The position numbers and the translations under genes are program-made. A stretch of DNA of 56,869 nucleotides, taken from assembly GCA_046756545.1 (NCBI GenBank), contig JBHHWM010000003.1, forward strand, positions 1 through 56,869. Direction: 5' to 3'. Positions 35,395-55,395 of this stretch are shown here, piece after piece. Below the pieces are notes generated by a model. The model saw only the letters and a list, made by a program, of their open reading frames with translations. It was not told where the DNA came from and searched no databases. The first letter of the stretch is position 1, and every line of letters begins with the position of its first letter. The stretch comes from Rhodothermales bacterium (lineage in GTDB: Bacteria; Bacteroidota; Rhodothermia; Rhodothermales; JBHHWM01).

Positions 35395-35697
35395 CACGGC
35401 CTATGACCCGTACGTGCGGTTCCTCTGCTTCTGCAAGACCCGCTTTTCGCGCTAAATTCGCTGCACCCTTTCCGCCAATACACGCTGATTTTTTGTAAAT
35501 TCCATGGGCGCATAGGATCTATGCGTTAGCTGTGGGAACGTGTTGGGACGAGGAGCAATTCAACCTTTGTACATGCACCGCCTGCATACTCCCTGGCGGT
35601 GAACTGCGCGCCTGGCCGCCCCCTCTTCCAGGCCCTCCCGCATGCGGCGGATCATATCACGGCCTCCCCCCGGGCCGCTAACCGATAATTGAGGTCT

Positions 35698-37884
35698 ATG
35701 GCGAACAGAAAAAATTCTTCTAAGAAAAAAACGGGCTCGCTACAGGAACCGCTTCCAGGCAACGACAGGGCCGAAGCAACAACCAATGGAACGGAAACGA
35801 AACGGGACGACCCCACCGACGGGATCACCCTACCCGGCATCGAACACGACGGGACGCTCACGATCCACCCTGTCAGCGTAGCCGATTTCGACGAAGAGAC
35901 GTTGCTCCGGGTGTATCGCACCATGCTCACCTCGCGGCGCCTCGACGAGAAGATGCTGACATTGCTCAAGCAGGGAAAAGGCTTCTTTCACATCGGCTGT
36001 GCCGGACACGAAGCGGCACAGGCCGCCGTCGGCTTGCTTTCCCGCCCCGGCCACGACTGGTTTGCCCTGTATTACCGGGATCTATGCATGGCCCTCATGC
36101 TCGGCCTGACCCCGGAAGAAACCATGCTGGCCCATATGGCCAAGGCGGACGACCCGAACTCGGGCGGGCGCCAGATGTCCGAGCATTACAGCCTCCCCGA
36201 TAAGCACGTCATTACCACCGCTTCGTCGGTCGGCGCACAGTACCTGCCGGGGCTCGGCATGGGCTTCGGCGTCCAGCGGCGCGACGAGCAAGACGCGTAC
36301 GTCTATTGCTCCAGCGGCGAAGGAGCCACGTCCCAGGGCGACTTCCACGAAGCGCTCAACTGGGCCGCACGCAACGAGGCCCCCGTGCTGTTTTTCGTCC
36401 AGGACAACAAATACGCCATTTCGGTCCCGGTGGCCGAGCAGACGGCGGGCGGCACCCCCTACAAGCTGGCCGCCGGCTACGAAGGGTTGCAACGCATCCG
36501 TGTGGACGGCACCGATTTCTTCAAGGTCTACGCCGTCGCCCGCGCCGCCATCGACTATATCCGGGCAGGAAACGGGCCCGTCTGCCTCGTGGCCGACGTG
36601 GTGCGCCTGCTCCCGCACTCTTCGTCCGACAACCACACCAAGTACCGCACGCCGGAAGAACTGGCCGCCGACCGCAAGATCGACCCGATTGTCCGGCTTG
36701 AGATGCGGCTGATCGAAGCCGGAATCCTGACGGATGAAAAAATGGATGCGATACGGAACGAGACCCGGCAGCGGGTTGACGAAGCGACGGTGTGGGCCGA
36801 TCAACAGCCCGACCCGGCCCCGGAGACTGCTACGCGGCACGTCTATTCCGAGAACGATCTGAAGCTGAAGTATGCCACGACCGATCCCTCGGGCGCTCCC
36901 GTTGTGATGATAGACGCCATCAACCACGCGCTGCACGAAGAAATGGAGCGCGACGAACGAGTCATCGTCTACGGCGAGGACGTCGCGGGCAACAAAGGCG
37001 GCGTGTTCACCGCCACCCGCGACCTGACCGCCCGCTTCGGAAAAGACCGCTGTTTCAACTCGCCCCTGGCCGAAGCGTCCATCATCGGCACCGCCGTCGG
37101 ACTGAGCGCGACCGGCTTCAAACCCGTCGTCGAAATTCAGTTTGCCGACTACATCTGGCCGGGGATGCAGCAACTGCGGAACCAGGTGGCTCCCTTCCGC
37201 TACCGTTCCAACAACGGATGGGGCTGCCCCATGGTGATCCGCGTACCGACCGGCGGCTACATCCACGGCGGCCTGTGCCATTCGCAAAACATCGAGTCCA
37301 TCTTCGGTCACACGCCGGGCTTCCACGTCGTCCTCCCTTCGACGGCGGCAGACGCCAAGGCGTTGCTCAAGACGGCCATCCGCTCGGACGACCCGGTGCT
37401 TTTCCTGGAACACAAGGCGCTCTATCGCGCGGCGGCGGCCCGCACACCGGAAACCGGCACCGACGACCTCCTGCCCTTCGGGAAGGCCCGCATCCATCGC
37501 GAAGGCACCGACCTGACCATCGTCACCTACGGCCTGATGGTGCACAAATCGATGAACGCGGCCCGGCAGATTGAGAAAGAGGACGGCGCGTCCGTCGAAA
37601 TTATCGACCTGCGCACCATCGTCCCGCTCGACACCGAGGCAATCTTGGCTTCGGTCCGTAAGACGAACCGTGTGCTCGTCGTCTACGAAGATCACGAATT
37701 CATCGGCTTCGGAGCCGAGATCAGCGCCCAGATTGCGGACAAGGCGTTCGAGCACCTCGACGCGCCGATTCGCCGGGTGGCCGGGGCATTCACGCCGATC
37801 CCGTTCGCCGATCCGCTCGAACGCGCCGTGCTCCCCCAGGACGAGGACATCCTTCAGGCCGTCCGGGCCCTGCTGGCCTATTGA
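35698..37884 (+). CDS. 2-oxoacid (branched-chain/pyruvate) dehydrogenase E1, fused alpha/beta subunits
   Basis: GEGATSQGDFHEALN...QDN TPP motif, HSSSD loop, GEDV..GGVF, PLAE, EIQFADY, GGLCHSQ, FLEHK. Confidence 0.95.
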   Translation: MANRKNSSKKKTGSLQEPLPGNDRAEATTNGTETKRDDPTDGITLPGIEHDGTLTIHPVSVADFDEETLLRVYRTMLTSRRLDEKMLTLLKQGKGFFHIGCAGHEAAQAAVGLLSRPGHDWFALYYRDLCMALMLGLTPEETMLAHMAKADDPNSGGRQMSEHYSLPDKHVITTASSVGAQYLPGLGMGFGVQRRDEQDAYVYCSSGEGATSQGDFHEALNWAARNEAPVLFFVQDNKYAISVPVAEQTAGGTPYKLAAGYEGLQRIRVDGTDFFKVYAVARAAIDYIRAGNGPVCLVADVVRLLPHSSSDNHTKYRTPEELAADRKIDPIVRLEMRLIEAGILTDEKMDAIRNETRQRVDEATVWADQQPDPAPETATRHVYSENDLKLKYATTDPSGAPVVMIDAINHALHEEMERDERVIVYGEDVAGNKGGVFTATRDLTARFGKDRCFNSPLAEASIIGTAVGLSATGFKPVVEIQFADYIWPGMQQLRNQVAPFRYRSNNGWGCPMVIRVPTGGYIHGGLCHSQNIESIFGHTPGFHVVLPSTAADAKALLKTAIRSDDPVLFLEHKALYRAAAARTPETGTDDLLPFGKARIHREGTDLTIVTYGLMVHKSMNAARQIEKEDGASVEIIDLRTIVPLDTEAILASVRKTNRVLVVYEDHEFIGFGAEISAQIADKAFEHLDAPIRRVAGAFTPIPFADPLERAVLPQDEDILQAVRALLAY

Positions 37885-37922
37885 CGGACGCAGGCAGCGG
37901 CCTCTCCATAGCCAACGAACCT

Positions 37923-38657
37923 ATGAACACGCAGCGTTGCCTGTCATGGCTGGTGATGTTTGCGCTGCTGCCCGCCTTGCCTGCGGGGGCACAGGGCAAA
38001 CTGGTGATCGAAAACACCGCGCACGACTTCGGCACCATTGAAGAGGGGCACGAGGCCCGCCACGACTTCATCTTCCGCAACGACGGCGACGCCCCGCTCC
38101 GGCTGACGAGCGTGCAGCCAAACTGCGGCTGCACCACCCCCTCGTGGACGCGCGATCCGGTACCGCCCGGCGAAACCGGCTCCATCACGGTCGTCTTCGA
38201 CTCCCGGAACCGACCCGGCACGTTCGTCAAGTCGGTGCGCGTGACAACCGACGGCGAGCCCGCCCAGGTGAAACTCTTCATCGAAGGCTTTGTCGAGCGC
38301 GTCCGCCTCCCCGGCGGCATCGCCCAGGGCAACCTGCGCTTCGACCCCGAGGCCGCCGACCTCGGCGACATCCCGCAGGGACGCAACGCCCTCCACACCT
38401 TCCGTCTCCAAAACACCGGCACGCGCCCCATTCGCATCAGGTCCGCCACGCCGTCACACGACCACGTTACGGTCGAAATTCCGGCACAGCCGATCTTTGC
38501 GGACGACCTCGCCGAGATATACGTCGTGGTCAAAACCGGGCATCTGGCCGCCGGAACGGACATCGCCTACACGCTGACGCTGGAGACGGACGACGAGATC
38601 CGGCCCCAAAAATTGCTTCGACTGACCGGAACGATCACGGCCGGCGACGCGCACTAG
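37923..38657 (+). CDS. DUF1573 tandem Ig-like domain protein
   Basis: Signal peptide, HDFGTI, FRNDG..PL, NCGCT; second related domain; ATG at 37923. Confidence 0.88.
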   Translation: MNTQRCLSWLVMFALLPALPAGAQGKLVIENTAHDFGTIEEGHEARHDFIFRNDGDAPLRLTSVQPNCGCTTPSWTRDPVPPGETGSITVVFDSRNRPGTFVKSVRVTTDGEPAQVKLFIEGFVERVRLPGGIAQGNLRFDPEAADLGDIPQGRNALHTFRLQNTGTRPIRIRSATPSHDHVTVEIPAQPIFADDLAEIYVVVKTGHLAAGTDIAYTLTLETDDEIRPQKLLRLTGTITAGDAH

Positions 38658-38961
38658 CCCATCCCTCCGTCGATGGAAAGAACACCGTCGAGGTCGCTGT
38701 GTGTATTCGTCGATTCATCGTTTCCTCGATTCCACAGGGCGACCGGAGAGCACAACGGGAGGTCTTGTTGCACGGCACGCGCCCCGGTTCTTCGCCTGCG
38801 TTAAGAAACCAGGACGCTTACAAAAACGTCTCCCTCGTTGCGTAACAGGTACAAGAAGCGGTGTACTAAACAACGACCCTCCCGGACCGGCTCACTACGT
38901 AATCACGCCGTTCGACCTCCGGGACCTGACCGCCACACTGAGACTACCCGGCTCGAAGCTC

Positions 38962-39912
38962 ATGCGCTTGTCCCGCCCCCTCCTTTCCACCGTTCGCGTC
39001 GTCTGCATCCTGAGCGTCCTCTGGTTGGCCGAGAGGCGGGATAGCCACGCCCAGGCCTGGTTGCAGCCCAAAGGACACGCCTACGTCAAGCTGTCGCATG
39101 GCCGCGCAACCGCCTCGGAGCAGTTCCGCTTCGACGGCGAAACCAAAGCCTACGCCGACAACGTCGACGGGGACGCATTTTTTGACCGCAGCTTCTACCT
39201 CTACGGCGAGTACGGACTGACGGACCAACTCACCGTGGTCGTCGTCCTGCCCTATAAATCCATTCGCGTGCTCGACGCCGCCTTCGAATACGAGACCGAG
39301 GGCGTGGGGTCCGTGATGATCGGCCTGCGCACCAGCATCAAGCACTGGATCGGCCTCACCGACGACCGACACACCCTCGCAGCGAACGTCATGCTTACCC
39401 TCCCCACCGGCTATACCCGTAACTTCACACCGTCGGTCGGTCCGGGGCAGGTCGATTTCCAGACGACGATCAACTACGGGCTGAGCCTCTATCCGATGCC
39501 CGGTTATGCCCAGATGGGACTCGGCTACCGCTACCGTTCGGCGTTCTACGGCCTCTCCGCCACTACCGCATGCCAGGAAGGCCGCGACGTGAACTGCTTT
39601 GCCTCGACCGAGCCGAAGTATGACGATGAACTCTTGTTCTCTGTCGAAATTGGTTTTAACTTTGATCGATGGGCGCTGGTGCAATTCCTGGGCCAGGGGG
39701 TGTGGTCGAACAAATCGCCGGATGCGGAGACGAGCTTTTCCGTGCGCAACCCCATTCCTACCCGGCAACGCTACATCAAAACCGGGGCCGGGCTGACGGT
39801 CTACCCGCTCCGTAAGCTGGGAGTGAGCGCGCAGGTTTTTTTCACGCCTTCCGGTCGTAACACCGTGCGTTCTACGGATTATTTCTTCGGGGTCGAATAC
39901 CGGCTGCCGTAG
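38962..39912 (+). CDS. Outer-membrane beta-barrel protein, uncharacterised
   Basis: Signal peptide ending HAQA, YGEYGLTD, LPTGY, amphipathic strands, C-terminal GVEYRLP; ATG at 38962. Confidence 0.75.
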   Translation: MRLSRPLLSTVRVVCILSVLWLAERRDSHAQAWLQPKGHAYVKLSHGRATASEQFRFDGETKAYADNVDGDAFFDRSFYLYGEYGLTDQLTVVVVLPYKSIRVLDAAFEYETEGVGSVMIGLRTSIKHWIGLTDDRHTLAANVMLTLPTGYTRNFTPSVGPGQVDFQTTINYGLSLYPMPGYAQMGLGYRYRSAFYGLSATTACQEGRDVNCFASTEPKYDDELLFSVEIGFNFDRWALVQFLGQGVWSNKSPDAETSFSVRNPIPTRQRYIKTGAGLTVYPLRKLGVSAQVFFTPSGRNTVRSTDYFFGVEYRLP

Positions 39913-39988
39913 TGCGTGCCTCCCTGATGTTTTCTCACCGCTGCCATGCGATAGATACCTCACCCCTGCCCCCTACCTGCACATCCAC

Positions 39989-41221
39989 ATGCCTACCCTA
40001 AGCCCCCAACCAACCCGTGCGCGGGTTGCATCCTGTGTTTTCCTGTTCTTGATGCTGTCGTTCGGAACGCCCGTTCGAGCGACGGCCCAGGACGTCGGCC
40101 TCGACGCCTTAGAACAGCAGGTCGTCGACCTGTTCGAACGGAGCTGTGCCCGCTCAGGCTGCCACGCCGGCCCCGTGCCGCAGCAAGGCATGATGCTGAC
40201 CCGGGATCAGTTCTATGCCTCGATTGTCGGCGAGCCCAGCCGGGAACGGCCTGCCTTACAACGCGTCCACCCCGGCCAACCCGAGATCAGCTACCTCGTC
40301 ATGAAAGTCAAGGGAGCCCCAGGCATCATCGGAAGCCGGATGCCGCTCGCCGGCGACGGGCTCTCGGACGAAGACATACGGACCATTGAACAATGGATCG
40401 CCCGCCTCGACGAGGTAGACGAACGCCGCAAGCAACAAGTAACAGCCTCCGAACCCTATCCTTTCGACGGCTGGAAAATCATCAATCTACCGACCACGCG
40501 GGCCCTCGATGCGGGCAGCGTCCTCTTTCTCATCGGCCACCGTTTCAACCCCAAGATCAGCGACGGATACGATGCCCTCTTCGGCCTCGACGGCAGCGGC
40601 ATCATCTACCTGAGTGTGGGCCATGCCCTGACGGATGATTTTCTCATTGCGCTGGGCCGGAGCAACGCTTCCGACAACGTCGAACTCCAGGCTCGATACC
40701 GGATAGCGCGTCAGGATGGACCGCGCAGGTGGCCCGTTGCGGTTAGCGCGCAGGCGGCCGTCAACTGGATCTCGGAGAAGCCGCCGGGAGAAAGCCGTTA
40801 CCGGAGCGAAGCCTTTAAGTTCACCGGCCAGGTGAGTCTGGCACGCGAGATAGCGCCGGGCGTCGGCGTGGCCGTCGTGCCCGGTCTTCTGATCAATCCT
40901 GCCGAAAACGTCGAAGGAGAAGACCCGATGGTTACGCTGGGGCTGGGAGGGCGCTGGCGGTTTTACCGGAATCTCTCGCTCGTCGGCGAGTGGGTCCCCA
41001 TCCTTTCCGGGTTCACACGAACGACGACCTTCGGCAACGACATTCGCTTCGATAGCTGGGGCGGCGGCCTCGAAATCACGACCGGGGGCCATGTCTTCCA
41101 GATCGTGGTCAGCAACACCGTCGGGCTCACGACGGATCAGTACCTGCGTGGAGGCGACCTCGACATCACCGAAGGCGATCTACGCCTCGGGTTCAACATT
41201 TTCCGCATCCTGAACTTCTGA
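39989..41221 (+). CDS. Cytochrome-c-like (CX4CH) domain fused to DUF5777 beta-barrel
   Basis: Signal peptide; CARSGCH...SYL..K...RMP...QW domain; then LIGHRF, FGLD, TGGHVFQ, LGFNIFR typical of DUF5777. Confidence 0.82.
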   Translation: MPTLSPQPTRARVASCVFLFLMLSFGTPVRATAQDVGLDALEQQVVDLFERSCARSGCHAGPVPQQGMMLTRDQFYASIVGEPSRERPALQRVHPGQPEISYLVMKVKGAPGIIGSRMPLAGDGLSDEDIRTIEQWIARLDEVDERRKQQVTASEPYPFDGWKIINLPTTRALDAGSVLFLIGHRFNPKISDGYDALFGLDGSGIIYLSVGHALTDDFLIALGRSNASDNVELQARYRIARQDGPRRWPVAVSAQAAVNWISEKPPGESRYRSEAFKFTGQVSLAREIAPGVGVAVVPGLLINPAENVEGEDPMVTLGLGGRWRFYRNLSLVGEWVPILSGFTRTTTFGNDIRFDSWGGGLEITTGGHVFQIVVSNTVGLTTDQYLRGGDLDITEGDLRLGFNIFRILNF

Positions 41222-41234
41222 ACAGCCCCCCGAC

Positions 41235-41657
41235 ATGATGCCCCCCTTTCGAAACCGTCTTGTCTCTTTGATCTTGTTGACCTTGCTTACGGCGAGCTGC
41301 GAACACGTCGGACCGCTGGAACGGATCCCTCTGGAACCCACGCTGACGAGTATTCAGGCTAACATTTTCAGCACCAACTGTGCGCTTTCGGGCTGCCACG
41401 CAGGAGCCGCTCCCCAGCAGGGCATGAACCTGAGCGAGGGACAGGCTCACGCAAATGTCGTGAACGTCCGCAGCCGGGAGAGACCCGATCTTTTCCGCGT
41501 AGCGCCGGGCAGCCCGGACAGCAGCTATCTCTTCTTGAAAATCACCGGAGCACCCGGCATCGTGGGCGAACGCATGCCGCGCGGACGAGCCCCGCTCTCC
41601 GCCGAGCAAATCAGCGCCGTCCGCCAGTGGATTGCCGACGACGCACTCGATAATTGA
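41235..41657 (+). CDS. Cytochrome-c-like lipoprotein (CX4CH)
   Basis: Lipobox LTASC, CALSGCH, distal RMP; 41/67 identical without gaps to the N-terminal domain of 39989..41221. Confidence 0.82.
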   Translation: MMPPFRNRLVSLILLTLLTASCEHVGPLERIPLEPTLTSIQANIFSTNCALSGCHAGAAPQQGMNLSEGQAHANVVNVRSRERPDLFRVAPGSPDSSYLFLKITGAPGIVGERMPRGRAPLSAEQISAVRQWIADDALDN

Positions 41658-42066
41658 TGCTCCTTCTTCTGCGTTCCCCTCTGGTCGCAGCAAGGAAGGG
41701 AGGCCCTTGTTTGTGCGTCGATTCTTCGTCTCGCCGCTTCCTCAGTTCCGGGGTGCGACCTGAGGGTACAACGTGCGTTATTACCGTGTCCGTCGCCCCC
41801 CCGAGCGAAGCAGGTTATTTTCTTCCCCTGAGTCTGCCGGATCAAAACAAGGGTAGCCATGCGTAGGAGCTACCTGTTCAGCCAAAACCACCGCATAGGC
41901 ATGGATGCCGCCAGCGGAGTAACGGTAGAATAGGATGATGCTAGAAGGTGGCTCCGGTACCCATCCCGCACACCCAACCTGTTATGCATCAGAGAGCCCT
42001 TTGACCAATGGCAACGTGGACCGGCACAGGGACCGGTCGGGCGGTACCGCCTTATCCCAACGGCTC

Positions 42067-43191
42067 ATGAAAAACCGGTCGATGACCCGGCGTACGTTTC
42101 TTCAGCGAGCAGGCGGTATCGCCGTCGGCCTGGGCTTTGTGCCGCTCGGCGGCTGTGAGACCATCACGGTCACCCCGCGCATCACGGGCGGCGATGTAGC
42201 CTTCCTGTCTCCCCTCGACCTCGACCCGGCACAGGGCGGCTTCTACGTCGAAAACGGGGCGGAAGGCGCTATCGGCGGCTGGACGATGCCGGACCTCGAC
42301 CCGGCGACCTGGTCGCTGACCATCGACGGCCTCGTAGCCACCCCGCTGACGCTCGGCCTGGCCGACCTGGAAGCCGAACCCGCCGTGACGCTCCTCAAAA
42401 CGATGCGCTGCATCACCGACTCGAACGAGTTCCCCGGCCTGATCGGCACAACGCTCTGGAGCGGCATCCCCCTGCGCCTGTTCCTCGACCGCGCCGGCAT
42501 CGACCGCACCCGTGCGCACCGCTTGCGCATCTACGGCACGGACGGCTTCACCAACAACCTCAAGCTCGACGACGTCTACCGCGACTTCGGCCCCGACGAG
42601 TTCGAGCCGATGCTCGCCACGCACATGAACGGCCGGCCTCTCACCCGCGAACACGGACGGCCCGCACGCCTGTTCGTCTTCAACGATTACGGCTATCGAA
42701 GCGTGAAGTGGATCGCACGCATCGAGGCGACGGAGAGCGACGAGGTGTTCGGCACCTACCAGCAAGTGCTGGGCTTCTCGGACGACAGCGTCATCCGGGT
42801 ATCCAGCAAGATCACCAACCCGGTCTTCAACCAGGTGCTGCCTGCCGGAACGATGCTGGTCTCGGGCTTTGCGGTCAGCGGGTTCGGGGCCGTCACCAGG
42901 GTCGAGGTATCCTTCGACGGCGGTCCTTTTCAACCTGCTCGCCTCGTGCCGTTCGACGAGTTATTGACCGACGAACCCGACCTGGCCCACGCTCGCCAGG
43001 TGGCAAACGGGCTGGCCTTTCCGTTCCGCTCCGTATGGGTAAAATGGACCATTCGCTGGGACGCTACGCCCGGCACCCATGAGATCCGCGTGCGTGCCAC
43101 CGACGCTGCCGGCAACATCCAGGAAGACAACGACTTTACGTTTGAAGACGGGTTCAACCCGATCCCCGCCGTCACCGTCACGGTGGAATAA
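42067..43191 (+). CDS. Sulfite-oxidase-family molybdopterin oxidoreductase with Tat lipoprotein signal
   Basis: MTRRTFL...LGGC, TMRC Mo-ligand Cys, WSGIPL, HGRPARL, SVKWI, dimerisation domain RVEVSFDGG...RATDAAGN. Confidence 0.9.
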   Translation: MKNRSMTRRTFLQRAGGIAVGLGFVPLGGCETITVTPRITGGDVAFLSPLDLDPAQGGFYVENGAEGAIGGWTMPDLDPATWSLTIDGLVATPLTLGLADLEAEPAVTLLKTMRCITDSNEFPGLIGTTLWSGIPLRLFLDRAGIDRTRAHRLRIYGTDGFTNNLKLDDVYRDFGPDEFEPMLATHMNGRPLTREHGRPARLFVFNDYGYRSVKWIARIEATESDEVFGTYQQVLGFSDDSVIRVSSKITNPVFNQVLPAGTMLVSGFAVSGFGAVTRVEVSFDGGPFQPARLVPFDELLTDEPDLAHARQVANGLAFPFRSVWVKWTIRWDATPGTHEIRVRATDAAGNIQEDNDFTFEDGFNPIPAVTVTVE

Positions 43192-52914: not shown

Positions 52915-54087
52915 CTAGATAGCCGCCAGCGCCTGGTCCAGGTCTTCGATCAGGTCTTCGACATCCTCGACCCCGACGGACAGGCGAATCAGCGTGTCTT
53001 TCAATCCGGCCTGGAGGCGTTCTTCGCGGGGAATGGAGGCGTGCGTCATGGAGGCGGGATGCCCGATCAGGCTCTCGACGCCGCCGAGGCTTTCGGCCAG
53101 GGAAAAGAGGCGCGTGCCGCTCAACACCCGGTGCGCCTTGTCCATGTCATCGTCCCGGAGCGAGAAGGAGACCATGCCGCCGAAATCGCGCATCTGTCTC
53201 TTTGCGAGGTCGTGGCCGGGATCGGCAGGCAGGCCGGGATAATGCACGTGCCCTACCTTCGGATGCGCCTCCAGGAAAGCAGCGATGCGCCGCGTGTTTT
53301 CGCAATGGCGCTCCATGCGCAGGTGCAGGGTCTTCGTCCCTCGGAGCGTCAGGAAACAATCCATCGGCCCCGGCACCGCCCCGGCGCTTTTGACCAGAAA
53401 ACGCAACGTCTCGTCCCAGTCTGCACGACTGGTGCACACCACGCCGCCGATGACATCGGAGTGCCCGGCCAGATACTTGGTGGTGGAGTGCAGCACGAGA
53501 TCCGCACCGAGAGCGAGCGGCTGTTGCAAATAGGGCGTAGCAAACGTGTTATCCACCGCCACGTCGATGCCGTGCGCGTGGGCCAGGTCGCACATCCGGC
53601 GGATATCTACCACACGGAGCAACGGATTCGTCGGCGTCTCAATCCAGAAGAGCTTCGTTTCGGGCCGCAGGGCCTGCTCGACGGCGGCGAGATCCGTCAT
53701 ATCGACGAACGACGCACCGACACCGAACGGGCCGAAGACCTGGGTGATGAGGCGGTAGGTGCCCCCGTAGAGGTCGTTCGAGGCCACGATGTGGTCACCG
53801 GGCCGCAGCCCCTTGAGAATGGCATCGGTGCCGGCTACGCCCGAGGCAAAGCAGATGCCGTAGTCGGCCCCTTCCAGGGCGGCGAGGTTGCCTTCGAGCG
53901 CCGAACGCGTGGGATTGGACACGCGGGCATACTCGTGCCCCTGATGCACGCCCGGCGCTTCCTGTACATACGTCGAGGTCTGGTAGATGGGCGTCATGAT
54001 CGCCCCGCTGGAAGGATCCGGCTGCTGCCCGGCATGAACGGCCAACGTGCCGAAGTGGTACGTTTTTTCGAGGGTCGGTGGATTCAT
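52915..54087 (-). CDS. Cystathionine gamma-synthase/gamma-lyase (PLP trans-sulfuration enzyme)
   Basis: PIYQTSTY, YARVSNPT, DLYGGTYR, ETPTNP, DNTF, HSTTKYLAGHSD, AESLGGVESL. Confidence 0.95.
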   Translation of the reverse strand: MNPPTLEKTYHFGTLAVHAGQQPDPSSGAIMTPIYQTSTYVQEAPGVHQGHEYARVSNPTRSALEGNLAALEGADYGICFASGVAGTDAILKGLRPGDHIVASNDLYGGTYRLITQVFGPFGVGASFVDMTDLAAVEQALRPETKLFWIETPTNPLLRVVDIRRMCDLAHAHGIDVAVDNTFATPYLQQPLALGADLVLHSTTKYLAGHSDVIGGVVCTSRADWDETLRFLVKSAGAVPGPMDCFLTLRGTKTLHLRMERHCENTRRIAAFLEAHPKVGHVHYPGLPADPGHDLAKRQMRDFGGMVSFSLRDDDMDKAHRVLSGTRLFSLAESLGGVESLIGHPASMTHASIPREERLQAGLKDTLIRLSVGVEDVEDLIEDLDQALAAI

Positions 54088-54119
54088 AGAGTTGAGTCGA
54101 GGATTACCATAGAGCACGT

Positions 54120-54157
54120 AAAAAACGAACCCGAGCCTCAAACGAAGCCCGGGTTCG
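54120..54157 (-). terminator. Rho-independent terminator after TPR gene
   Basis: Minus-strand cgaacccgggcttc-gttt-gaggctcgggttcg stem (G-U pairs) followed by tttttt. Confidence 0.8.
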
Positions 54158-54183
54158 CTGCTACACAAGCAAGCAACAGGGCG

Positions 54184-55395
54184 CTACAGGTCGTAGCCGG
54201 CACATTCGGCAACGGCCTCCGCCTTTTCGATCTGGTTCGTCTGTCCGTAGGCCTGGTAGAGCGCCTGGCAAATACCCTGCAAGTCGGCACCCTGCGCTTC
54301 GGACACTTCCCGCGCTCGTTCGAGGGGGGCAATGGCCTGCTCGAAGAGCCCGCGCCGCTGGGTGGACAGTTCGTCTAGCTGCGCTTCCATCGCCGAAATC
54401 TCGTCGGCGGACAGGTCGGCGCGTTTTTCGCGGAGATTGTCGTCGATCTCGTTATACTGGGCGTTGATCGCCACCGCCTTGTTGACATACGCCGCGCCCA
54501 GGTTATACTGTGCATTCGCATACTCGGGGTCGATCTCGGCGGCTTTGGCCAATTGCTCGATAGCGCCGTCATAATCTTCCATTTCGAGCAGGATCGAGCC
54601 GTAGTTATACCGGTAGAGCTTGTTATCCGGCTCGTTTTCTACAGCGCTTCGATACACCCCCAGGGCCTCATCCGTTTTGCCGGACACCACGTAGGCATTC
54701 ATCATGAGAGTCTGGATCTGCTCGCTTTCCGGATACACCGCGCGGGCTTTTTCCAAAACCGCGATCACGTTCTCATACTTTTCCTGCTCGCCGTACAAGG
54801 TGGCCAGGTAAACGAACGTGTCCTCCGAGGTATCCCCCTTCTCGATGGCGGATTCGAGAGGTTGGATGGCCTCGGCATTGCGCCCGCCGTTGAGCAGCGC
54901 AAAGGCCTGGTTGACGTAGGTACTTGCCGAATCAGGGAAGATCAACGAAGCATTGCCGAAGTAATCAGCGGCAGCACCAAATTCCGCGGAGCCGTTCTCG
55001 GTGTTCTGACCTCTGTTAAAAGCCTCCACACCGCGTTGAAACTCACTGAAGTAGGCGATGTTGAGCCGGTTGTCGACATCCGACCCCAGCGCTGGATCGA
55101 GTTCTTGGGCGCGTTGGTACGCCTCGATCATTCCACGGAAGAGCGTGTTGTGCTCTTCCACATCCCGCACGGCAAAGGCCTTTTCCTGGAGCACGCGGCC
55201 CTTGATCTGATACGCCTCGGCGTTCTCAGGATTCGTTTCCAGCGCCTTGTCGATATTCTCCAGAGCGCGGTCGTAATCCTTGTTGTTCAGGTCAAGTTTG
55301 GCCCCCTCCACGTTCGGATCGCTAGAGCATCCACGGGCTCCAAGCAACAGGACTCCACCCAAGAGGATGGCTAGAAAGAGGGAAAATCGCTTCAT
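54184..55395 (-). CDS. Tetratricopeptide-repeat lipoprotein
   Basis: Signal peptide ending ARGC, repeated TPR helices (YRYNYG, AQYNLG, LEKAR..YP). Confidence 0.9.
   Translation of the reverse strand: MKRFSLFLAILLGGVLLLGARGCSSDPNVEGAKLDLNNKDYDRALENIDKALETNPENAEAYQIKGRVLQEKAFAVRDVEEHNTLFRGMIEAYQRAQELDPALGSDVDNRLNIAYFSEFQRGVEAFNRGQNTENGSAEFGAAADYFGNASLIFPDSASTYVNQAFALLNGGRNAEAIQPLESAIEKGDTSEDTFVYLATLYGEQEKYENVIAVLEKARAVYPESEQIQTLMMNAYVVSGKTDEALGVYRSAVENEPDNKLYRYNYGSILLEMEDYDGAIEQLAKAAEIDPEYANAQYNLGAAYVNKAVAINAQYNEIDDNLREKRADLSADEISAMEAQLDELSTQRRGLFEQAIAPLERAREVSEAQGADLQGICQALYQAYGQTNQIEKAEAVAECAGYDL

Follow-up and report, generated by a model that had tools for sequence, protein, structure and literature searches.

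The four consecutive plus-strand genes for exported proteins that occupy positions 38,962 to 43,191 of contig JBHHWM010000003.1 are two separable two-gene modules and not one ancestral unit. The contig was analysed over its whole length of 56.9 kb (56,869 nucleotides, nt), hereafter called the window; it belongs to a 5.4-Mb metagenome-assembled genome whose closest relatives are Rhodothermales. Pair A consists of an outer-membrane (OM) beta-barrel protein, here called barrel1, and a molybdenum (Mo) enzyme of the SUOX fold. Pair B consists of a protein in which a cytochrome-like domain is fused to a DUF5777 barrel (the fusion protein) and of a small cytochrome-like lipoprotein (lipoCyt), both with the motif CX4CH. 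We tentatively propose, and give somewhat less than an even chance to, the reading that an ancestral operon for a channel and a Mo lipoprotein acquired the CX4CH cytochrome/DUF5777 pair as its electron-transfer partner, and that the substrate of the enzyme is not sulfite. The genes and the residues referred to below are the following.

38962..39912, + strand: barrel1, OM beta-barrel protein with a signal peptide, 316 amino acids (aa), pair A
39989..41221, + strand: cytochrome-DUF5777 fusion protein, 410 aa, with a match to PF19089, pair B
40145..40165, + strand: heme-attachment-like motif C53-ARSG-C58-H59 of the fused domain (alignment A2)
40340-40345, + strand: M118-P119 of the fusion protein, presumed distal ligand
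40463..41209, + strand: DUF5777 barrel domain of the fusion protein, from the family match in the genome search
40538-40546, + strand: H184-R-F of the fusion barrel
41090-41092, + strand: H368 of the fusion barrel
41235..41657, + strand: lipoCyt, CX4CH lipoprotein cytochrome of 140 aa with a lipobox and C49-ALSG-C54-H55, pair B
41298-41300, + strand: lipobox Cys22 of lipoCyt
42067..43191, + strand: Mo enzyme, Tat-exported lipoprotein of the SUOX fold, 374 aa, pair A
42154-42156, + strand: lipobox Cys30 of the Mo enzyme
42409-42411, + strand: Mo-ligand Cys115

The row of four exported genes had been described in an initial annotation of this DNA, which had also stated that no ordinary partner cytochrome is encoded in the window and that a 409-nt gap precedes the Mo gene. 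All of this was borne out: the gap is real, and besides the CX4CH genes the window has a single long open reading frame (ORF) with a CXXCH string, which cannot be recognised as a cytochrome.

Relatives of all four proteins were located by tblastn in 48 genomic loci and several metagenome contigs fetched from the fusion protein. The gene for the fusion protein was followed by that for lipoCyt, and the two were adjacent in almost every locus with a complete fusion gene. In roughly 30 loci pair B occurred with no Mo enzyme, which was present in only a minority of the fusion loci; elsewhere the pair was found beside TonB receptors with ECF (extracytoplasmic function) sigma and anti-sigma factors, beside LTD-like and YceI-like proteins and beside small cytochromes c. 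Rhodocaloribacter litoris is among the carriers of pair B. Pair A was likewise found by itself, and one of its carriers, G344, is a complete genome of cultured type. The Mo gene was immediately preceded by the barrel1 gene in L060-L063, L067-L070 and L074, and in L067, L068, L069 and L074 the two were separated by a few bases at most or overlapped by 4 bp. Neither DUF5777 nor CX4CH genes were present in any of these pair-A loci.

The two pairs nevertheless occurred together within a few kb in at least ten loci, in two gene orders and with Mo enzymes of two clades. In the first order (barrel1, fusion, lipoCyt, Mo) they were found in the window, L006, L023 and L072. In the second, a lipoCyt with the motif CSSEFCH is followed by barrel1, MbnP, MbnH, the Mo enzyme and the fusion protein; this tightly packed arrangement was complete in L005, L012, L021 and L025 and partial in L016 and L073. 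The synteny of the Mo enzyme with DUF5777 and CX4CH genes in other genomes, by which the initial annotation could be judged, was therefore confirmed in two arrangements, but conservation of the four genes as one neighbourhood was upheld only in part, as most loci of the Mo clade lack pair B and most fusion loci lack the Mo enzyme.

The flanks of some loci indicate how the two pairs came together. In L072 the order is NTP_transf_9, barrel1, fusion, lipoCyt and Mo, followed by convergent Cys_Met_Meta_PP and TPR genes. L068 and L060 have the backbone of L072, but there barrel1 adjoins the Mo gene and no pair B lies between them. Since the filled site (L072) and the empty sites (L068 and L060) share their flanks, pair A appears to be ancestral and pair B to have been inserted. 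The window shares this backbone, with the E1 dehydrogenase gene (which is also upstream of barrel1 in L067 and L068) on one side and the Cys_Met_Meta_PP and TPR genes on the other, the latter being separated from the Mo gene by about 9.7 kb of interposed DNA. In a tree of the Mo enzymes those of the second gene order formed one clade (support 100/100), and those of the first order belonged to another (100/99) together with three loci that lack pair B. In the tree of the fusion proteins those of the first order stood at two positions, surrounded by fusions whose genes have no Mo gene as neighbour. These positions in the two trees suggest that the association of pairs A and B was made or lost several times. 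A repeated association without any functional link is hard to explain.

In three loci of the Mo clade the place directly after the Mo gene is taken by a gene for a CXXCH lipoprotein cytochrome, tetraheme in L061 and L074 and monoheme in L063, which makes a cytochrome partner for this clade plausible. This layout, with a CXXCH cytochrome gene right after the Mo gene, is that of SorAB and SoxCD. The initial annotation had proposed that the CX4CH proteins are the electron partners of the Mo enzyme. The recurrent co-location and the cytochrome slot in the sister loci speak for this proposal and the dispensability of pair B speaks against it; the assignment remains an inference. All the partner cytochromes, and the Mo enzyme as well, are lipoproteins. 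The partner cytochromes share in addition an acidic start after the lipobox, C-[EDS]-x-x-D-P, and the Mo enzyme starts with C-E-T; in this lineage such a start may direct sorting or export to the surface.

That the CX4CH domains are cytochrome-c-like, as the initial annotation had it, was corroborated by their alignment to CXXCH proteins and by the weak family matches of 44 members. lipoCyt has the lipobox LLTAS-C22, followed by C49-ALSG-C54-H55 and M114-P115, and matches the fused domain of the fusion protein with 44% identity over 131 aa. In the fusion protein C53, G57, C58, H59, M118 and P119 were invariant among 50 homologues (alignment A2), and in lipoCyt C54, H55, M114 and P115 were invariant in 44. 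BLASTP aligned lipoCyt to CXXCH relatives with 42-46% identity; the alignment has a gap in the motif that is exactly two residues long. The relative P0212 has CXXCH at the position of the CX4CH of lipoCyt; P0184 is a tandem protein in which the first domain has CX4CH and the second CXXCH, and it carries Pfam PSCyt1; P0211 has the spacing CX5CH. Both window proteins fell below every Pfam cytochrome threshold (the best match was PF13442 with an E-value of 0.03, and PSCyt1 gave none at E<=0.1). When the 44 members were scanned singly, weak matches were obtained to Cytochrome_CBB3 (21 members), the heme protein CTI (18) and PSCyt1 (10, best E 6.8e-9), and further ones to Cytochrom_C and PccH, all of which are cytochrome c families. 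In other proteins CX4CH is recognised as a heme c motif. The alignment with a gap of two, the invariant Cys, Cys-His and Met-Pro and the restriction of the weak matches to cytochromes indicate, at the level of sequence, a class-I/PSCyt1-like cytochrome domain with a two-residue insertion in the motif, to which heme would be attached.

The closest described likeness is PSCyt1 (PF07635, 'Planctomycete cytochrome C'), which has the same order of motifs: an N-terminal helix that closes with Cys..Cys-His, after it PG.P..SYL and MP, and lastly a C-terminal W(I/V)..GA. The window domains differ from PSCyt1 in scoring below the Pfam threshold, in the two extra residues of the heme motif and in being either a stand-alone lipoprotein or fused to a barrel. 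A third CX4CH paralogue was found in the same genome (G000) on contig C29 (L071:5997-6413). It has 138 aa and the motif CALSGCH, is not accompanied by a DUF5777 partner, and lies between the gene for a HycI-type maturation protease and those for the cytochrome b, large and small subunits of a NiFe hydrogenase. The small subunit is taken to be Tat-exported and the hydrogenase periplasmic. The position of this paralogue fits a general electron-carrier role and suggests that CX4CH cytochromes may serve several periplasmic redox enzymes.

The barrel part of the fusion protein is a member of DUF5777. PF19089 matched residues 159-407 with an E-value of 1.2e-45 and 156.1 bits, well over the gathering threshold of 23.1, and covered positions 1-246 of the 247 in the profile; the H..F, GGHVFQ, D, R and N that are invariant in the family are present, and the protein ends in RILNF. 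In its AlphaFold2 model (predicted local distance difference test score, pLDDT, 90; predicted template-modelling score, pTM, 0.81) a barrel of about 12-13 strands comes after four helices that are laid out like those of class I cytochromes c, and the heme-like motif is at the end of helix 38-53, the class I cytochrome c position in this model. When Foldseek was run on the whole model, in which the barrel dominates the matches over the cytochrome domain, the barrel resembled the folds of FapF, OmpG, COG4313 and NanC, the best matches being 12- to 14-strand barrels. Homologues of the fusion protein (n=592) came mostly from Rhodothermales. DUF5777 barrels that lack a cytochrome domain were common (158 of the 401 genomes sampled from the phylum), and the full-length fusion was present in only 5. 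The loci examined showed that DUF5777 genes often have a cytochrome gene as neighbour. H184, D201, R224, N303 and GGH368VFQ were invariant also in the DUF5777 proteins that have no cytochrome domain (alignment A7); the two histidines together with D201, R224 and N303 could make up a site for a cofactor or metal, inside the barrel or on it. The N-terminal segment of DUF5777 is conserved and was modelled with confidence, and it may plug the barrel. A literature search found no paper that mentions the family.

Like the fusion protein, Cyc2 of iron oxidisers (PMC8406198) combines a c-type heme motif and an OM beta-barrel in one polypeptide and has a small periplasmic cytochrome encoded nearby. The fusion barrel, however, is a smaller DUF5777 barrel of about 12-13 modelled strands as opposed to the larger Cyc2-type porin, and its CX4CH motif lies within a globular domain of about 100 aa, whereas the CXXCH of Cyc2 is in a short N-terminal stretch. 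Unlike Cyc2, the fusion locus has no iron-oxidation context; the two are set apart here by motif and barrel features and not by a sequence comparison. Elsewhere, in the Salinibacter/Salinivenus-type loci L029, L031, L032 and L040, the cytochrome-DUF5777 pair comes just after genes for an ECF sigma factor, a FecR-like anti-sigma factor and a TonB-dependent receptor, which is a metal-uptake signalling context. A gene for a protein that resembles YceI (polyisoprenoid-binding type) lies directly upstream of DUF5777 in L047, L048, L049, L052, L036, L039 and L043; such neighbours were mostly beside DUF5777 genes without a fused cytochrome.

The Mo enzyme has the twin-arginine translocation (Tat) motif TRRTFLQ, a PF00174 (Oxidored_molyb) domain (E 6e-36) and a C-terminal Mo-co dimerisation domain. 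Its Tat signal is followed by the lipobox VPLGG-C30. Gly29 and Cys30 were invariant in 13 orthologues, which indicates that the enzyme is a Tat-exported lipoprotein. A longer ORF starting at 41935 was rejected because the orthologues begin at the twin-arginine signal. The clade is sharply bounded, with about 88 clusters at E<=1e-77 before the next drop to 1e-35, and rare, being present in 5 of the 401 sampled genomes; its members are annotated merely as 'molybdopterin-dependent oxidoreductase'.

The solved structures closest to the Mo enzyme were SorA, chicken and plant sulfite oxidase, SoxC and SorT. Cys115, invariant in the clade, aligns to C104 of SorA and C185 of the chicken enzyme. With SorAB, SorT-SorU and SoxCD the enzyme shares a Tat-exported molybdenum cofactor (Moco) domain, the Mo-ligand Cys and a C-terminal Ig-like dimerisation domain. 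The cationic pocket that binds sulfite (Arg55, His57 and Arg109 of SorA; Arg138 and Arg190 of the chicken enzyme) was not found in it. In a profile alignment to 2BLF, FFVRYH with Arg55 and His57 of SorA is replaced by FYVENG, and CSGNSR with Arg109 by CITDSN, which puts an Asn at this position; pairwise alignment likewise gave Asn for chicken R190. The loop after the Mo-ligand Cys motif is 11 residues shorter than in SorA. These pocket replacements and the short loop were kept across 13 orthologues of the Mo clade. The NCBIfam models for SorA (NF052245, 67.5 bits against a cut-off of 600), SorT (NF052247, 72.2 against 570) and SoxC (TIGR04555, 89.2 against 420) were missed by far. The replaced pocket residues together with these scores make sulfite an unlikely substrate, and the sulfite chemistry for which the initial annotation had allowed is disfavoured by the missing sulfite-binding residues. 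Apart from its pocket and loop, the window enzyme is unlike the Sor and Sox enzymes in being a lipoprotein, in having a dedicated OM barrel partner and in standing beside CX4CH cytochromes, of which one is joined to a barrel.

MsrPQ (YedYZ) has the same Moco-binding fold and Tat export, but the Mo enzyme differs from it by its dimerisation domain and has no adjacent gene for an MsrQ-type partner. With the MsrP model NF003767 (cut-off 207 bits) the enzyme scored 35 bits, in an alignment of only 43 residues, whereas a genuine MsrP with 374 bits is encoded elsewhere in the genome on contig C134. Orthology to MsrP was rejected on this score, on the dimerisation domain and on the presence of the true MsrP; the last of these also tells against the repair of oxidised surface proteins that had been suggested initially.

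barrel1 has a signal peptide that ends with AQA|W. It had no Pfam match at E<=0.1 and no NCBIfam match, and ten distant relatives were likewise without a Pfam match. The AlphaFold2 model (pLDDT 92.9) is a closed beta-barrel for which the top match in the PDB was the 12-strand COG4313 channel 4RL8 (TM-scores 0.69/0.80, root mean square deviation 3.8 Å). The family is small, with 377 representatives at E<=1e-3 and 28 at E<=1e-30 in a search of 1.84 billion proteins. COG4313 channels such as Pput2725 (PDB 4RL8) share the 12-strand barrel fold and have been linked to the uptake of hydrophobic small molecules (PMC4493636). barrel1, which is 14% identical to 4RL8, does not belong to the COG4313/Phenol_MetA_deg family by sequence and the likeness is one of fold only; its genomic partner is the Mo enzyme and not an aromatic-degradation gene as for these channels. 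Homology of barrel1 to the DUF5777 barrel was rejected (hhalign probability 0.9%). That the barrels admit substrate or pass electrons, as the initial annotation had suggested, gained support neither for barrel1 nor for the DUF5777 barrel.

Copper genes recurred near pair A. In every locus of the second gene order MbnP and MbnH, a copper-related pair of which MbnH is a MauG-like diheme peroxidase, lie between barrel1 and the Mo enzyme (L005:3957-5740), and two NHL-repeat proteins are encoded upstream in L005, L012, L021 and L025. Pair A comes directly after a CusA-like resistance-nodulation-division (RND) pump and an HMA protein in L061 (4427-8320) and L069 (787-4788), and is divergent from a CopA-like HMA P-type ATPase in L070 (2449-4731). 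This suggests a link between the Mo enzyme and copper homeostasis. No copper genes were found near the four-gene cluster in the window. In the genome to which the window belongs MbnP had a weak match elsewhere only (E 3.6e-4), so that the link to MbnPH belongs to the loci of the second order and not to this genome.

Two spacers bear on the expression of the four genes.

38658..38961, + strand: spacer of 304 nt between the DUF1573 gene (37881-38657) and barrel1, presumed promoter region
41658..42066: spacer of 409 nt before the Mo gene

In the 304-nt spacer neither a sigma-70-like site nor a Bacteroidetes-type -7 box was found. The 409-nt gap contains no recognisable sigma-70-like promoter and no -7 box (TAnnTTTG, which occurs at chance frequency); neither search is informative either way. 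The gap gave no Rfam match at E<=1, and it folds at the level of shuffled sequence (z -0.08). In L006, L023 and L072 the spacer before the Mo gene is only about 120-150 nt long and its sequence is not conserved. A Moco or other riboswitch in the gap was rejected on these three grounds. No dedicated heme lyase was found beside the locus; two CcsA-like loci are present elsewhere in the genome.

According to the reading that we favour, a small, probably uncharged substrate other than sulfite would enter via barrel1 and be oxidised by the Mo lipoprotein at the periplasmic face of the envelope. Its two electrons would leave singly via lipoCyt and the CX4CH domain that the barrel anchors, towards the respiratory chain, the CX4CH proteins standing in for the CXXCH lipoprotein cytochrome of the sister loci, and the four genes would be co-regulated across the 409-nt gap. 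By analogy with dehydrogenases that consist of a Mo enzyme and a cytochrome c, the direction of the reaction is probably oxidative. Several observations weigh against this reading. None of the ten Mo-clade loci found by the Mo-enzyme query alone carries pair B, a fusion homologue is absent from four pair-A genomes, one of which is complete, and no cytochrome gene lies near six of the pair-A loci; from the last two of these it follows that the Mo enzyme does not need pair B. The 409-nt gap may contain a separate promoter. The binding of heme by CX4CH in this family is a prediction, and the organism appears to use a system II heme lyase, which may or may not tolerate CX4CH. The DUF5777 barrel may be a mere anchor, as its N-terminal segment may plug it.

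Part of this would also be explained if the two pairs were mere neighbours, pair B being a mobile or shuffled cassette inside the pair-A operon and the Mo enzyme having its own promoter and using a general periplasmic cytochrome. Each pair is mostly found alone, four pair-A genomes manage without pair B, the gap is long and unconserved, and pair B also stands beside unrelated genes (TonB/ECF, LTD-like and YceI-like). Against so loose a connection, which we consider rather unlikely, the rare Mo clade, found in 5 of 401 genomes, yet lies within a few kb of the fusion gene in at least ten loci, and it does so in two gene orders, one of them tightly packed, with two Mo clades and with fusion proteins from several points of their tree. 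A closer functional bond is assumed if the four proteins are a trans-OM redox system, that is, a minimal conduit that is Cyc2-like but unrelated to Cyc2. The DUF5777 barrel, with its two invariant histidines and the conserved plug segment taking part, would then couple the fused periplasmic CX4CH cytochrome across the OM to the lipoprotein, with a CX4CH cytochrome and/or the Mo enzyme at the surface. We regard such a conduit as distinctly unlikely; if it were true, the barrel-cytochrome pair would be a general OM electron socket that is plugged into a Mo enzyme here.

The reaction itself could run in the other direction. An S- or N-oxide reductase that is MsrP-like but not orthologous to MsrP, acts under copper or oxidative stress, receives its electrons from the CX4CH cytochromes and either mends oxidised proteins of the envelope or reduces a small sulfoxide would account for the copper genes beside pair A (L061, L069, L070 and the second order) and for a lost cationic pocket, which fits a neutral substrate; MsrP of Escherichia coli repairs CusF, a copper chaperone, during copper stress (PMC9302797). 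We think a reductase unlikely, however, as the genome already has its genuine MsrP (374 bits against the cut-off of 207, compared with the 35 bits of the Mo enzyme), the enzyme has kept the dimerisation domain of SorA and sulfite oxidases, for which the MsrP model of 320 positions has no room, elsewhere it shares its operons with c-type cytochromes, as dehydrogenases do, and the window cluster has no copper genes nearby. The replaced Arg, His and Arg of the pocket and the loop that is 11 residues shorter throughout the clade, together with 68-89 bits where 420-600 are required, make it most improbable that the enzyme is an ordinary sulfite dehydrogenase of the SorAB/SorT type which detoxifies sulfite with unusual cytochrome subunits, even though its best solved relatives are SorA, the sulfite oxidases, SoxC and SorT, its two-domain architecture is theirs and sulfur amino-acid genes lie near several loci. 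Nearly as improbable is a CX4CH domain without heme, with a disulfide or a bound metal instead, in which case pair B would be non-redox and serve, for example, in anchoring or OM metal handling. It would agree with the failure of the window proteins at all Pfam cytochrome thresholds, with the CX5CH of P0211 and with a family for which we found no published study, but close relatives have CXXCH at the homologous position, the His and the Met-Pro are invariant, the modelled helices follow the class I cytochrome pattern and every weak match is to a cytochrome c family.

A Mo enzyme with a cytochrome is a known kind of system; the parts found here are undescribed, and three of the four components (DUF5777, barrel1 and the Mo clade) have no described family or function. 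The pair of Mo enzyme and channel occurs with ordinary cytochromes, with CX4CH/DUF5777 pairs or with no cytochrome gene at all, and thus forms a natural experiment. The locus offers a biochemical handle on the role of DUF5777-cytochrome pairs, and it suggests that the sulfite-oxidase fold, for which few activities are known, may also act on a new class of substrate.

The backbone genes that enclose the Mo locus in the window are the following.

35689-37884: E1 dehydrogenase gene, upstream backbone gene of the Mo locus
52915-55395: Cys_Met_Meta_PP and TPR genes, downstream backbone genes

Beside the true msrP on C134 an ORF of 173 aa (L075:1226-1747) gave weak matches, far below the cut-offs, to the HNH region of IscB/Cas9-type nucleases. 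The 9.7-kb stretch interposed between the Mo gene and the downstream backbone of the window contains a hybrid kinase cassette and genes for a DcuC-type carrier, a protein of the beta-lactamase fold and an S9 peptidase.

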